Assembly (NCBI GenBank): GCA_045649045.1 | Contig: JAZRPF010000010.1 | Location: forward strand, 1-61,260 | DNA: 61,260 nt | Direction: 5' to 3' | Source: Eubacteriales bacterium | GTDB taxonomy: Bacteria; Bacillota; Clostridia; Oscillospirales; CAG-272 | Program-made: the position numbers and the translations under genes | Shown: positions 46,324 to 49,777 of the stretch, piece after piece | How positions within the stretch are numbered: position 1 is the first letter of the stretch | Layout of the letters: every line of letters starts with the position of its first letter | Notes under the pieces: generated by a model | The model's database searches: none | What the model was told of the DNA's origin: nothing | What the model saw: only the letters and a program-made list of their open reading frames with translations

Positions 46324-46683
46324 TCAAAGTCCTAATGCATACTTAAGTTTTTTATCAAGCTCTGCCATTGTTTCATCGCTCAGACGCCCAATATGATTTT
46401 TCAAACGCTTGGTATCAATTGCCCTAATTTCATAGAGCAGAATCCGGTACGAAAAAAGCGGAAGCTCCGGAATGTCCGCGGGAATCGTTGCCATTGCGTT
46501 CTGACTTTCGAACTCAGTGCTATTTGAGGACAACGGAGCAACAATAACTGTACCGCCATTTGAGTAAGCTTCTTCATTCAACTCATCGTTTGAAACAATA
46601 ACAACATACCGTATTCCGCCCATTTCAGCGCCAAATACAGGCGACAGATCTGCCCAAAATATATCTCCGCGTTTTATTATCAT
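46324..46683 (-). CDS. MazF/PemK (EndoA-like) endoribonuclease toxin
   Basis: MIIKRGDIFWADLSPVFGAEMGGIRYVVIVSND closely parallels B. subtilis EndoA [33 protein letters not shown]; ATG 46683 after GGAGGAG. Confidence 0.85.
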   Translation of the reverse strand: MIIKRGDIFWADLSPVFGAEMGGIRYVVIVSNDELNEEAYSNGGTVIVAPLSSNSTEFESQNAMATIPADIPELPLFSYRILLYEIRAIDTKRLKNHIGRLSDETMAELDKKLKYALGL

Positions 46684-46739
46684 GGCTTTACTCCTCCTAC
46701 TTTGTACTATTCTAATTATAACATAAATTCTTTTCGCGT

Positions 46740-47837
46740 TCAAGTACTGTATTCAGCCATTATCTGTTGATACTCTCTCGGATAATAGACTTGATACCAA
46801 TTCAGAATAATCGAATATTTCAATTCCAACACCGCAAGCGCTTTTGTTGACATATAGTGTGTGGTTCTGATAAAGCTACCGAACCAATCTGGAAGACCAA
46901 GCATTTGTAATGTGATGTTGGTATAATAATCCATGCCGTGTTCATAGTAATATCCGCGCCGAGCTTTATTTGCTACGTCATAAGCAAAGCCCGCATCGTT
47001 AAAATCGCAGTCACGCATCGCGTCACGGATAATCATAAATACCTCGTCGCGCGTAGAAGGAATATCGGTGAGCGAACAGATCCCATTAGAGAGAAGCTGC
47101 TCAGCGTTATGCCGCCAAGTGCAAGTGCCGTGGACAAGTCCGATCAGCTTCAGAAAATCGCTATATGTTACCGGATGTGCGATCGTGATCATTTGCTTGA
47201 TAACTTTTTCGCCGCCAACACCTGCTAATTTCTCAAATTCACCCGTCAAAAGTCGGTGCTTGACTCCGCGGTCGTTCAAGTCAATACTATCCAAACACTC
47301 ACCGGTGCGCTTTTCCAACTGCGCGCAAATACTGAGAGTCCGCAACAGCGATTTCTGAAAATGGGAGAAGGTAGCCTCGGATAGCTCAAGATAGCTTTCA
47401 TCGGTAACATCTGCAACCTTGAGCTTTTTTGCATAAGGCAGATAGGTTTCAAAGGGAATGTCGAAGCCGTCTGCCTTCATCTTTTCACCGCAGGCGCAAA
47501 TGCGGTCGCGAAGGTCGAACGCGCACCTGCCTTCCACCCATTCCACCGTTTTACATTTCGGGCAATAATAATGCGTGGGCAACGGATTTTCGTCTGTCGC
47601 ACCAAGTAAATATGCCACAAAACAAGAGGCGACCGCGTTTTTGACAACCATTCGTTCATCAGCTTGCTTTACTTCGGCACGGAGCCTGAAAAGTTCGTAA
47701 AAGTATTTGCCAACCTCATACTGCATAAAGGCTTGTTTTTCGCTGTAAAATCGGCTGACGATACGCAGATCGGGCATATCTCCGTACAATTCAAAAATCC
47801 TTTTATATGCTTTGTCCCAAATTTCTTTTTCGGTCAT
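46740..47837 (-). CDS. stand-alone degenerate PolC PHP/zinc-finger-region homologue
   Basis: 365 aa; ENPLPTHYYCPKCK..DLRDRICACGEKMKADGFDIPFETYL and LIGLVHGTCTW..NAEQLL match remembered PolC segments, with metal-ligand positions substituted. Confidence 0.6.
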   Translation of the reverse strand: MTEKEIWDKAYKRIFELYGDMPDLRIVSRFYSEKQAFMQYEVGKYFYELFRLRAEVKQADERMVVKNAVASCFVAYLLGATDENPLPTHYYCPKCKTVEWVEGRCAFDLRDRICACGEKMKADGFDIPFETYLPYAKKLKVADVTDESYLELSEATFSHFQKSLLRTLSICAQLEKRTGECLDSIDLNDRGVKHRLLTGEFEKLAGVGGEKVIKQMITIAHPVTYSDFLKLIGLVHGTCTWRHNAEQLLSNGICSLTDIPSTRDEVFMIIRDAMRDCDFNDAGFAYDVANKARRGYYYEHGMDYYTNITLQMLGLPDWFGSFIRTTHYMSTKALAVLELKYSIILNWYQVYYPREYQQIMAEYST

Positions 47838-48295
47838 CTATGATTTTCTCCTTTATACTTTTCAAGCGCATCAAACACCTTGTGATATACAAGCTGATTG
47901 GGATAATACCGATAATCCGCAAAAATATCGATTCCGCGCCCTTCAAAGTGCTGCAATATCGCAGCGGCGCAGCCCGCGGAGCGGGATTGACCGAAATCGC
48001 ATTGGCAGATAATGTCGCGTCCCTCGGCTCTTGCTTCGTAAATAAATTTTGCAAGCTCGTCTGCTTCTGCAAGATAGGTTTCGTAGGTGTAGCCGTAATC
48101 ATCAAGGATCTCGATATCAATATCGGGGATCAGAATGTTAAATACGCGGTCACATGCGTTCCCGAAATAAACCCGTACTTCTTCGGCTCTGCGCGTTTTG
48201 CGCGGACTGCAAAAGCTGATGACCGCCGTGTTTTTTGGGAAATCCCCCTTCATAAGCTCTTTAATCGCTTTGCGGGAATAGATTTCAACCTTCAT
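47834..48295 (-). CDS. Cys-based phosphatase-like protein (CX5R loop)
   Basis: 153 aa from ATG 48295 (RBS GGAGGGAAAG); CDFGQSRS = C-x5-R-S P-loop; acidic IPDIDIEILDD upstream. Confidence 0.5.
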   Translation of the reverse strand: MKVEIYSRKAIKELMKGDFPKNTAVISFCSPRKTRRAEEVRVYFGNACDRVFNILIPDIDIEILDDYGYTYETYLAEADELAKFIYEARAEGRDIICQCDFGQSRSAGCAAAILQHFEGRGIDIFADYRYYPNQLVYHKVFDALEKYKGENHR

Positions 48296-48872
48296 TTTCT
48301 TTCCCTCCATCAAGATCAATATAAGAATAATTGCTGTGCTGAAGGCACAAAACGTAACCTTTTGTCAGTTCAGTAGGGATTTTTCGTTCAGCAAAAGCTC
48401 CGTTGCCGTCGTAAATACGGATGCTTGTTTCATTTGATGATACTCTTTTCGAGGTACAGCAGTATTTAAAAACCTGCTTTTTAAGATCAGGCGCGGTGTA
48501 CGGCGCAGTGGTGATCTCATAGGCATAATTCACTTTTTCCTTGCTGCAATCCCACGTGTCATAAATACAACCGTCAACGCAAGCAGACCAGTGCTCATCC
48601 ATATCAAGAATATATCTGCCGCGAAGATGTTGTTTGCAAAATTCCTCGGCGGTCAATTGGTTATTAAGGGATATCTTTTTTGCGTTTAATACATCCTCAA
48701 CGTATCGCAGATTTTTTACACTGTTGAAGGACTTTGCGCCCGTGACCTTTTTGTATTCATTCAATTTGCGTTGAACAGCCGCGTAGTCCCACCCCGTCAC
48801 TACAACGATAGCGCGCTTTACGCAATCGTCGGTAGACAAGCCCTTGGGGTGAGGATTATAATATTTATACAT
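48285..48872 (-). CDS. hypothetical protein, N-terminal papain-like (Cys-His-Asp) domain candidate
   Basis: 195 aa; YNPHPKGLSTDDCVKRAI ... HWSACVDGCIYDTWD; resembles a widespread phage/Firmicute family of unknown function. Confidence 0.4.
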   Translation of the reverse strand: MYKYYNPHPKGLSTDDCVKRAIVVVTGWDYAAVQRKLNEYKKVTGAKSFNSVKNLRYVEDVLNAKKISLNNQLTAEEFCKQHLRGRYILDMDEHWSACVDGCIYDTWDCSKEKVNYAYEITTAPYTAPDLKKQVFKYCCTSKRVSSNETSIRIYDGNGAFAERKIPTELTKGYVLCLQHSNYSYIDLDGGKENEG

Positions 48873-49137
48873 CTTGCAGATTCCTTTCTTTCAATGATTC
48901 TTTGTACTGCTCACGGTACTCAGCAAGTGTCGCGCCGTTGGCAGCAGAATAGTGATCCTCGGGAAATCCATCATATTCCCATCCGCAATGACGGCAAATA
49001 TCGTAATTATCAAGTGTTTTGCGCTTGCAAACGGGACAAATTATAACTGAATGATCCTCGTCATAGGCTGTACCGACGGGTGGTAAAACACGCTTGCCGT
49101 ACTCTCCGCGTATTGCGGCATAAATGCTTTCTTTCAT
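48865..49137 (-). CDS. CPCC-family cysteine-rich protein
   Basis: 90 aa; CPVCKRKTL..YDICRHCGWEYD. Confidence 0.65.
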   Translation of the reverse strand: MKESIYAAIRGEYGKRVLPPVGTAYDEDHSVIICPVCKRKTLDNYDICRHCGWEYDGFPEDHYSAANGATLAEYREQYKESLKERNLQDV

Positions 49138-49700
49138 ATGCGGACCATTTGAACCTTTTCATGCTTTATTTCAGGATAGCCTGAGCAAACTGAGATAAAT
49201 ACTTGTCTGCCCAGAGAAGAAAGCTTATCAAGAATTAAAGTGATGTCGAATGCCTCATCGAGACGGTCGAAATAGCTGTAAATGAAGATAGGACGGTCAT
49301 CATCACGAGAGGTTATGTTGGCGGTTTTAATAAGCACATTGGAATCATCCGTGTCACGCTCGTTGCACTTATCTACAAACTCACGGGTATCGTCCTCTGA
49401 AAAGTGTACACTGTTCGGCTCAAAGTTTGCGGCAAGGCGGTTGTCGCCCATAAAGTCGGCATTGCGGATATAGCATACGCTGTAATTCTTGTTGTCCATC
49501 TCAATGTCTGCGTGGATTACGAAGCGCCCATCGTCAACACGATCGGGATCGTTCTGCGCGCCGTAGTCACCAATTAACTCGCGCAGAAGGTCAAGAGCGA
49601 GATCGGAGTAGTGGCCGTGAAGCATACAAACAGGGGAGGTAATTGTAAAGTCAAGATCGAGGGCAGAGGCAGATGTGATTTGAAGATTGCTAAATTTCAT
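49134..49700 (-). CDS. hypothetical protein, ABC/SMC-ATPase-like layout lacking a P-loop
   Basis: 188 aa; N-terminus laid out like RecF/SbcC heads but HGHYSDLA replaces GxxGxGKS; C-terminal RPIFIYSYFDRLDE resembles Walker B. Confidence 0.35.
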   Translation of the reverse strand: MKFSNLQITSASALDLDFTITSPVCMLHGHYSDLALDLLRELIGDYGAQNDPDRVDDGRFVIHADIEMDNKNYSVCYIRNADFMGDNRLAANFEPNSVHFSEDDTREFVDKCNERDTDDSNVLIKTANITSRDDDRPIFIYSYFDRLDEAFDITLILDKLSSLGRQVFISVCSGYPEIKHEKVQMVRI

Positions 49701-49748
49701 TTTTTACTCTCCTTTTGAGTGAAAATAATAATTATAATCGTGAAAGAG

Positions 49749-49777
49749 ATTATAACACACGATTTAAAAAATTTGAA
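49749..49777 (-). promoter_or_regulatory. candidate promoter of the minus-strand cargo operon
   Basis: minus strand TTCAAA-N17-TATAAT with TG extension; -10 box enclosed by inverted repeat AATCGTG (49736..49742) / CACGATT (49758..49764); second TATAAT at 49731..49736. Confidence 0.45.

Follow-up and report, generated by a model that had tools for sequence, protein, structure and literature searches.

How should a chain of five overlapping genes that ends in a lone mazF be understood? Such a chain is found on contig JAZRPF010000010.1 of the assembly GCA_045649045.1 (Eubacteriales bacterium; Clostridia, Oscillospirales, CAG-272), of which positions 1 to 61,260 were analysed; this whole stretch of 61,260 nucleotides (nt) is called the window below. 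The genes are named g1 to g5 and mazF in their order along the minus strand. An initial annotation had taken all six products to be one stoichiometric toxin or defence complex, with MazF as the effector and a degenerate ATPase-like and a PolC-like subunit as sensor or antitoxin parts. The reading that we consider best supported is a different one, to which we give a probability of about 0.6: g1–g5 would be an operon of a mobile element and mazF a solitary cargo gene, two units of one 11.6-kb integrative element.

The borders of this element can be recognised in the window. The six genes lie inside an 11,576-bp insertion (38861..50436) in a chromosomal region that contains secY, a gene for ribosomal protein S4, rpoA and rplQ, and then sugar-kinase, 1-deoxy-D-xylulose-5-phosphate synthase and other housekeeping genes. 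Directly after rplQ, the left junction is marked by one arm of a perfect 17-nt inverted repeat (AAAAAAGAAAAGTGACC, 38844..38860), and the right junction by the other (GGTCACTTTTCTTTTTT, 50437..50453), with the two arms 11,576 nt apart. The GC content is 0.41–0.44 in the element and 0.48–0.51 in the flanks, and the dip lies between rplQ and a DapF-like gene. A near-identical copy of the element, at the locus that we call L181 (94.5% nucleotide identity), occupies another insertion site, and homology between this copy and the window ends at about position 50434. Because the homology stops at the border while the flank is another one, the 17-nt repeat is read as a palindrome of the host that was split by the insertion; it is probably the terminator stem of rplQ. 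A palindrome split in this way suggests that the serine recombinase of the element targets a symmetric attB site. The initial annotation was right about the operon and overlooked that it is located in an integrative mobile element.

Within the element, the first five genes are packed without any spacing. They are g1 (49134-49700, 188 amino acids (aa)), g2 (48865-49137, 90 aa), g3 (48285-48872, 195 aa), g4 (47834-48295, 153 aa counted from the ATG) and g5 (46740-47837, 365 aa), all on the minus strand. The junctions g1/g2, g2/g3, g3/g4 and g4/g5 overlap by 4, 8, 11 and 4 nt: the first and last are ATGA overlaps (49134-49137 and 47834-47837), and the two between them lie at 48865-48872 and 48285-48295. 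Shine-Dalgarno-like sequences are found 5' of g1, g3, g4, g5 and mazF; g2 has the ATGA overlap only. Short gene overlaps are common in compact operons. Those found here can be called conserved because the identical 4/8/11/4-nt pattern recurs in three relatives (L174, L181 and L189) at 74–94% protein identity. In front of g1 there is a promoter-like sequence on the minus strand (TTCAAA-17-TGtTATAAT, 49777..49749; whole region 49736..49777), with the -35 box at 49777-49772 and a TG-extended -10 at 49757-49749. The -10 box is flanked by 7-bp repeat arms, AATCGTG (49764-49758) and CACGATT (49742-49736). This promoter is kept across the relatives; the 7-bp repeat is perfect in the window only, with at most 5 of 7 positions elsewhere. 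An operator function of the repeat was considered and dropped because relatives do not keep it, and no operator is claimed here.

The sixth gene is set apart from the other five. Between g5 and mazF (46324-46683, minus strand, 119 aa from an ATG with AGGAGG in front) there is a 56-nt gap, 46684-46739, in place of an overlap. A second extended -10 site is found in this gap (TTGAAC-17-TGtTATAAT, 46743..46715 on the minus strand), equal in quality to the g1 promoter and overlooked in the initial annotation. After mazF follows an intrinsic terminator on the minus strand (46282..46312; a 12-pair stem with 9 GC pairs, then a T-run), which separates mazF from the convergent gene u51. At the other end, a hairpin with a perfect 10-bp stem and a T-run (49870..49899, minus strand) after the DUF6809 gene of the element sets that gene apart from the g1 promoter. 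As far as the anatomy is concerned, the earlier description was reproduced: the coordinates of the open reading frames (ORFs), the overlaps, the 56-nt gap, the extended -10 promoter with its 7-bp arms (49777..49736) and the terminator at the shared end with its 12 pairs and T-run are all present.

Genome and contig look-ups gave 13 distinct architectures related to this locus. They all belong to one element family and many are fragments on metagenome contigs, and for this reason counts over architectures are not counts of independent events. None of the 13 lacks g2, g3 or g5; g1 is missing from one and g4 from three. The genes always follow one another as g1-(108 aa)-g2-g3-...-g5-(50 aa), and the order and near-universal presence of g1, g2, g3 and g5 hold across 55–90% divergence. 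The interval between g3 and g5 is the plastic part, with up to five other genes inserted. It can contain g4 in its 153-aa form or in longer forms of 255 aa or 316 aa, and in some relatives a leucine-rich repeat (LRR) protein, a 376-aa paralog of g5, a Bac_DnaA-like ATPase (1.2e-5), an AAA/TniB-like ATPase or a 1215-aa SNF2/ResIII/Helicase_C protein. All of g1–g5 are under purifying selection, with ratios of non-synonymous to synonymous substitution rates (dN/dS) of 0.04–0.23. The initial annotation had proposed to look at whether the gene order is conserved in other genomes; the set g1–g5 does recur outside this genome, and mazF does not co-occur with it.

For mazF, the label given earlier is confirmed by a match to PF02452 (2.1e-25, 89.5 bits against a cut-off of 23.1, residues 4-116), the PemK/MazF fold, and the protein also matches the MazF-like phrog_1936. 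All intact homologs keep R25 in the sequence 'GGIRY' and S52/S53 in 'APLSS'; on our reading of the sequence, these may correspond to R25 and T48 of EndoA from Bacillus subtilis. The frame is open upstream to a TTG (46741-46743) that overlaps the g5 stop codon (TTGA), so that a coupled form of 139 aa is formally possible. Two observations favour the 119-aa form: an AGGAGG stands in front of the ATG at 46683, and the homologs have N-termini that agree with this start. The gene is under purifying selection like the other five, at a higher dN/dS (0.24–0.35).

In the window, mazF is solitary. No antitoxin ORF lies beside it, the 56-nt upstream gap being without an ORF and the terminator following directly downstream. 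Searches of the 61-kb window with MazE sequences gave chance matches only, and a homolog of the Spo0A_C regulator described below was not found in the window either. Rfam gave no RNA family match on the element, and thus no known RNA antitoxin. Among the relatives, mazF is intact in five of the 13 architectures (the window with L181, L002, L176-180, L189/190 and L193). It is a pseudogene in L174, where the remnant ends after codon 32, and it is absent from the other seven, which keep g2, g3 and g5 and, in all but one case, g1. The gene 5' of mazF also differs: in the window it is g5, in L002 it is a 50-aa ORF with non-coding DNA after it, and in L174 it is a gene for a 306-aa protein. In the remaining three intact architectures (L176-180, L189/190, L193) the gene directly 5' of mazF encodes a regulator of 240–245 aa with a Spo0A_C domain (PF08769, 1e-47); it is located at 8998-9729 in L176, at 5295-6032 in L189 and at 3731-4453 in L193, in the last case with only a 3-nt gap to mazF. 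In L004, a Spo0A_C homolog is present and mazF is absent. In L002 and L174, an extended -10 sequence (TGaTATAAT or TGgTATAAT) is found upstream of the solitary mazF and of the mazF remnant, respectively. For the same partner elements, the synonymous divergence (dS) of mazF is 0.24–0.43, compared to 0.6–1.5 (up to 3.0) for g1–g5. As judged from these values, the lower dS indicates that mazF has a separate and more recent history than g1–g5. A scan of viral contigs with mazF found distant matches only, and its matches in a phage database are unannotated records in which no partner can be read.

In Myxococcus, the solitary MazF-mx is neutralised by MrpC, a transcription factor that is not a MazE (PMC4803016). 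Because of this precedent, the Spo0A_C protein is a reasonable candidate for the partner of MazF in the sister elements, where by analogy it may be a non-canonical antitoxin or regulator. The Spo0A_C gene is missing in the window, and hence the neutraliser of MazF would here not be adjacent.

We turn next to g5. It matches the NCBIfam PolC model at 6e-43, with 146.7 bits against a cut-off of 873, and it aligns to PolC of Geobacillus kaustophilus (3F2B, E 6e-33) over chain residues 416-560 and 745-883. Between these two blocks, residues 561-744 of the PolC chain (about 184 aa that make up the catalytic palm and the thumb) are replaced by 64 aa in g5. In terms of the PRK00448 model, g5 covers positions of about 830-967 plus the fingers segment. 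The first aligned block closes with 'KVADVTDE' where PolC has the catalytic 'KVPDIDLN', and this sequence varies across the g5 family. F1276 has been reported to be essential for the activity of PolC (PMC12592400), and the equivalent residue in g5 is a serine. Since the palm core and thumb are replaced, the acidic motif is degenerate and the equivalent of F1276 is lost, g5 is predicted to be polymerase-dead: a fragment of PolC made of the N-terminal part of the palm, with its Cys4 zinc finger, and of the fingers. What it shares with PolC, the replicative DNA polymerase III alpha subunit of Bacillota, is the CxxC...CxC zinc finger and the fingers helices. The differences are large, g5 having 365 aa compared to about 1440 aa in PolC, and lacking the N-terminal, oligonucleotide-binding (OB), polymerase and histidinol phosphatase (PHP) and exonuclease domains as well as the C-terminal duplex- and clamp-binding region. 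The earlier label of a degenerate copy of the PHP and zinc-finger region of PolC was therefore correct for PolC and for the zinc finger and wrong for PHP, as the match covers palm, zinc finger and fingers. Orthologs of g5 keep the zinc-finger residues C92, C95, C114 and C116 with little or no variation. Tandem dead-PolC paralogs are found in L176 (6477-7607), L169 (8872-10035) and L004 (8001-10533). The paralog has 376 aa and 27–32% identity to g5; as the upstream copy of the tandem, it has lost the first Cys pair, the CxxC half of the zinc finger. The two copies in L004 are diverged and carry longer inserts.

How widespread are such proteins? The g5 family comprises at least 238 clusters at 90% identity. 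The corresponding numbers are at least 364 for g1 and at least 378 for g3, and the clusters of all three are nearly all unnamed and come from gut or rumen metagenomes and from metagenome-assembled genomes (MAGs) of Clostridia. Searches for the g5 family in IMG/VR contigs, INPHARED phages and PLSDB plasmids found full PolC genes only, and a metagenome scan with g5 retrieved almost exclusively genuine PolC genes. A survey of C-family polymerases excluded fragments without an intact active site (PMC3919608). A search of the literature for stand-alone PolC-like proteins on mobile elements, or for an element of this type, found nothing relevant.

The first two genes of the operon probably act as one unit. 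g1 has no match in Pfam, NCBIfam, PHROG or PADLOC, and g2 is a CPCC zinc-ribbon protein (PF14206, 7e-8; phrog_6332, 6e-12), as it had been labelled before. In 9 of 31 diverse relatives of g1, the PF14206 CPCC domain of g2 is fused to the C-terminus of g1. Because the two are joined there into one polypeptide, they are predicted to work together also where they are separate, following the Rosetta-stone argument. g1 had been described as an ABC/SMC-head-like protein without a P-loop. The absence of the P-loop holds: the Walker A motif GxxxxGK[ST] is not found in g1, and of the sequence 'HGHYSDLA' at the equivalent position, only the glycine is conserved. For the likeness to an ABC/SMC head, there are weak hints from the fold and no profile match. 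None of the 31 diverse g1 members matches a Pfam ABC/SMC family, and a search with a g1-family profile reached no ABC/SMC protein; its 126 representative clusters are all of at most 300 aa, save for one weak match of 3470 aa. In an AlphaFold 2 (AF2) model of g1, the heads of Rad50, SMC and RecF recur among the Foldseek matches at ranks that lie between 1 and 17, with E values of 0.2–3 and template modelling (TM) scores of about 0.3. These hints are not significant because the model is poor, with a predicted local distance difference test (pLDDT) value of 59. In the closest MAG relative, L001, an ORF of more than 1943 aa without a convincing Pfam match (1-5832) lies directly upstream of g1.

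Less can be said about the next two genes. g3 matches phrog_3754 at 4e-24. It had been labelled papain-like because of the order of its Cys, His and Asp residues, and C17, H94 and D105 are indeed invariant, in a shallow alignment only (at least 71% identity). The fold gives no support, as the AF2 model of g3 (pLDDT 70) has no match in the PDB at E<0.3 and no peptidase is found among the matches. g4 had been labelled a CX5R(S) phosphatase-like protein. Here the motif itself stands: C99-DFGQS-R105-S106, together with D58/D60 of an upstream D-I-D, does not vary among 11 sequences with identities as low as 54%. At the level of the family the score is insufficient (DSPc 3e-4, 21 bits, below the cut-off of 33.5 bits), and the best PDB match, DUSP12 (E=0.13), is limited to the motif region. 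The protein also matches phrog_5614. Homologs of g4 with 54–63% identity are found in other serine-recombinase elements that contain none of g1, g2, g3 and g5, and together with its variable occurrence this makes g4 look like a swappable Cys-phosphatase-like accessory.

Taken together, g1–g5 are the conserved, promoter-proximal, translationally coupled early-type operon of an element that carries a repressor. As g5 would be unable to polymerise, it most likely binds DNA or a partner in the replisome, and the operon might serve the replication of the element, or the takeover of the host replisome, after induction. This role in replication is proposed because the gene immediately in front of g5 in sister elements encodes a DnaA-like AAA+ ATPase, a SNF2/ResIII helicase or a second dead-PolC paralog. 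The mazF gene would be optional cargo with a promoter of its own, probably coding for a stabilising or exclusion endoribonuclease, and in the three sister architectures that have it the Spo0A_C regulator may be the antitoxin. Several points weigh against this picture. The variant in the window is itself without the helicase and ATPase genes that underlie the replication argument, and its five genes may do something other than replication. The PHROG families of g2, g3 and g4 are of unknown function and would fit anti-defence or accessory roles equally well. With all 13 architectures coming from a single family, part of the synteny reflects common descent and not functional constraint. The mazF of the window looks intact and evolves under selection, yet no antitoxin for it was found, and a product of the operon might neutralise it. 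Finally, the evidence for the promoters and for the terminator consists of matches to a consensus.

The single six-part complex with MazF as its effector is very improbable in the light of these data. The tight and conserved overlaps would fit it, and so would the position of mazF at the distal end, on the same strand, in all five intact architectures, the lack of a canonical antitoxin beside it, and the precedent of MrpC and MazF-mx for a neutraliser other than MazE. The idea that tight coupling implies a complex is borne out in part, since the coupled operon g1–g5 is conserved and the fusions associate g1 with g2. The six-part complex fails the test of co-occurrence because MazF does not accompany the g1–g5 set, being missing in 7 of the 13 architectures that have g2, g3 and g5 and a pseudogene in one more. 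A promoter-like site of its own, the varying upstream gene and a dS that is two- to five-fold below that of g1–g5 also speak against MazF as the effector, and the make-up of g1–g5 is itself variable. None of the six proteins matches a family of PADLOC-DB 2.0 at E<=1, which agrees with the earlier statement that no system of this composition has been described, and nothing in the analyses made points to defence. If it were true, a six-part MazF machine would stand as a class of its own among toxin or defence systems; comparative genomics does not bear it out. Slightly less improbable is a reading in which g5 and mazF make up an unconventional toxin–antitoxin pair at the end of the operon, with MazF neutralised by g5, or by another protein of the element, in the variant without Spo0A_C. 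A solitary mazF directly after g5 (the window with L181), or after g5 and the 50-aa ORF (L002), would be expected for such a pair, as would purifying selection on a mazF without a visible partner. Yet g5 is common without mazF and also coexists with the Spo0A_C-mazF pair, it has no antitoxin-like domain, and the 56-nt gap between the two holds a separate promoter-like site instead of a coupling.

A more serious competitor, still on balance unlikely, is an array of accessory genes, in which g1–g5 would be mostly independent genes for anti-defence, immunity or host takeover behind one early promoter, with no complex beyond g1 and g2. It can be likened to the early regions of phages and the leading regions of plasmids, and g2, g3 and g4 do match phage families of unknown function. 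The occurrence of g4 in other serine-recombinase elements and the many different genes that enter the g3–g5 interval fit it well, and a dead enzyme fragment such as g5 would suit the role of a decoy. The initial annotation had named an array of unrelated immunity or anti-defence genes as its own alternative, and for g4 and mazF, which are modular, this holds. It does not hold for g1, g2, g3 and g5, which travel together in a fixed order and are nearly always present across the divergence given above. The fusions show that g1 and g2 are not independent, and what is found inserted are ATPases and helicases of replication type, not known anti-defence genes.

What does the preferred reading add? 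Hundreds of protein clusters at 90% identity point to a widespread and undescribed group of small elements that integrate into the genomes of uncultured gut Clostridia and whose conserved operon contains a stand-alone dead PolC, a pair of g1 and a CPCC protein that is fused in relatives, and a Cys-phosphatase-like protein with an invariant motif. PolC is a current antibiotic target in Bacillota. Dead copies of this essential replicase of the host on a mobile element would be a plausible route to hijacking the replisome or to a decoy. Non-canonical control of MazF could be tested on the solitary mazF and on its Spo0A_C-linked form in the sister elements. The furthest-reaching version is one that we put forward tentatively and consider doubtful as a whole: that g1, g2, g3 and g5 are an undescribed multi-protein module with the dead PolC and its zinc finger at the centre, this fragment often occurring as tandem paralogs, and that the module captures or blocks the PolC replisome of the host or of a helper phage and is used by SOS-repressor-controlled serine-recombinase elements of gut Clostridia, along with a new pairing of MazF in which Spo0A_C, or in the window an unlinked factor, replaces MazE.

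Judged by its predicted genes, the element is nearest to Tn4451-type elements and to the early regions of phages and satellites, yet misses defining features of each. Like Tn4451 and Tn4453, it is small, integrative and found in Clostridia, and it has a TnpX-type recombinase with Resolvase, Recombinase, Zn_ribbon_recom and DUF4368 domains; relatives of the window element also carry TnpV beside DUF6809. Unlike them, the element in the window has no TnpV, and neither a relaxase (TnpZ) nor antibiotic-resistance cargo was recognised among the element ORFs scanned. It carries an S24/LexA-type repressor and the g1–g5 operon, neither of which is, to our knowledge, a feature of Tn4451. The early operons of temperate phages or satellites are resembled in the S24 repressor, which is divergent from the g1 promoter in L189 and L194, in the compact coupled operon, and in the replication-type ATPases and helicases of the sister elements. 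As in satellites, there is an integrase in the window element, and among the element ORFs scanned no phage structural genes were recognised. On the other hand, primase, terminase, capsid and packaging genes were not recognised in the element, the g5 family is not in IMG/VR, INPHARED or PLSDB, and a helper phage is not known. The comparison of mazF leads to a similarly mixed result. With MazEF type II systems it shares the PemK/MazF fold (PF02452) and the Arg in GG-x-R, and it differs in having no adjacent antitoxin gene and no MazE-like sequence found in the 61-kb window. With MazF-mx it shares the absence of an adjacent mazE and, in the sister elements, a gene for a transcription factor (Spo0A_C) directly in front; it differs in its location on a mobile element, as MazF-mx is part of a developmental circuit.

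The other genes of the element complete this picture. At its left end, on the minus strand, is the gene for the large serine recombinase of TnpX type (38944..40773; Resolvase 4e-28, Recombinase 2e-20, Zn_ribbon_recom 1e-12, DUF4368 6e-12), the true start of which is probably an internal Met near 40587. Then follow, on the same strand, an 84-aa zinc-ribbon ORF with CPY..CPHC motifs (40971..41225), which has an 84-aa counterpart in the same place in L181, and the S24/LexA-type repressor (41241..41879; Peptidase_S24 3e-19, LexA_DNA_bind 3e-5), which also matches PHROG repressor and UmuD-like families. An operon on the plus strand (42063..46268, from the ORF calls) is convergent to g1–mazF and contains u242, u270, u199, a gene for a BspA-type LRR protein (44179-45870; LRR_5 3.5e-109), u65 and u51. 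Homologs of u199, u270 and u242 are syntenic in relatives. The 65-aa product of u65 (45884-46081), which matches no family, is made up of three 'RDFGG(R/H)I(I/L)' repeats; u65 and the 51-aa u51 are convergent to mazF, and the same pair is found in L181, L189 and L190. At the right end, the DUF6809 gene (49914..50189, minus strand; PF20648, 9e-23) serves as a marker of the element, and TnpV-DUF6809 pairs are found in the relatives L002 and L183-L190.

It is worth noting that the parts of the element do not always have the same orientation. The central 7.7 kb (42061-49784), with g1–mazF and the convergent operon, are inverted relative to the end blocks when window-type elements are set against L189-type ones; these end blocks are TnpV/DUF6809 on one side and the repressor and recombinase on the other (comparison of the window with L174, L189 and L194). 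As a result of the inversion, the repressor is divergent from u242 in the window and from g1 in the L189 type. Inverted repeats were not found at the inferred breakpoints. Further variation is seen in single relatives. The precomputed annotation gives a Phage_P4_cII domain (PF26915) in a 219-aa protein of L183 (10386-11045) and in L185 (3748-7395), in the latter at the N-terminus of the 1215-aa SNF2/ResIII helicase, and both genes lie between g3 and g5. The elements L176-L179 carry a Phd/ParE pair and, in addition, encode a 1018-aa protein (14731-17787 in L176) with a eukaryote-type RNA-dependent RNA polymerase domain (PF05183, 5.7e-16), which resembles the YonO-type single-subunit RNA polymerase of prophage SPbeta.

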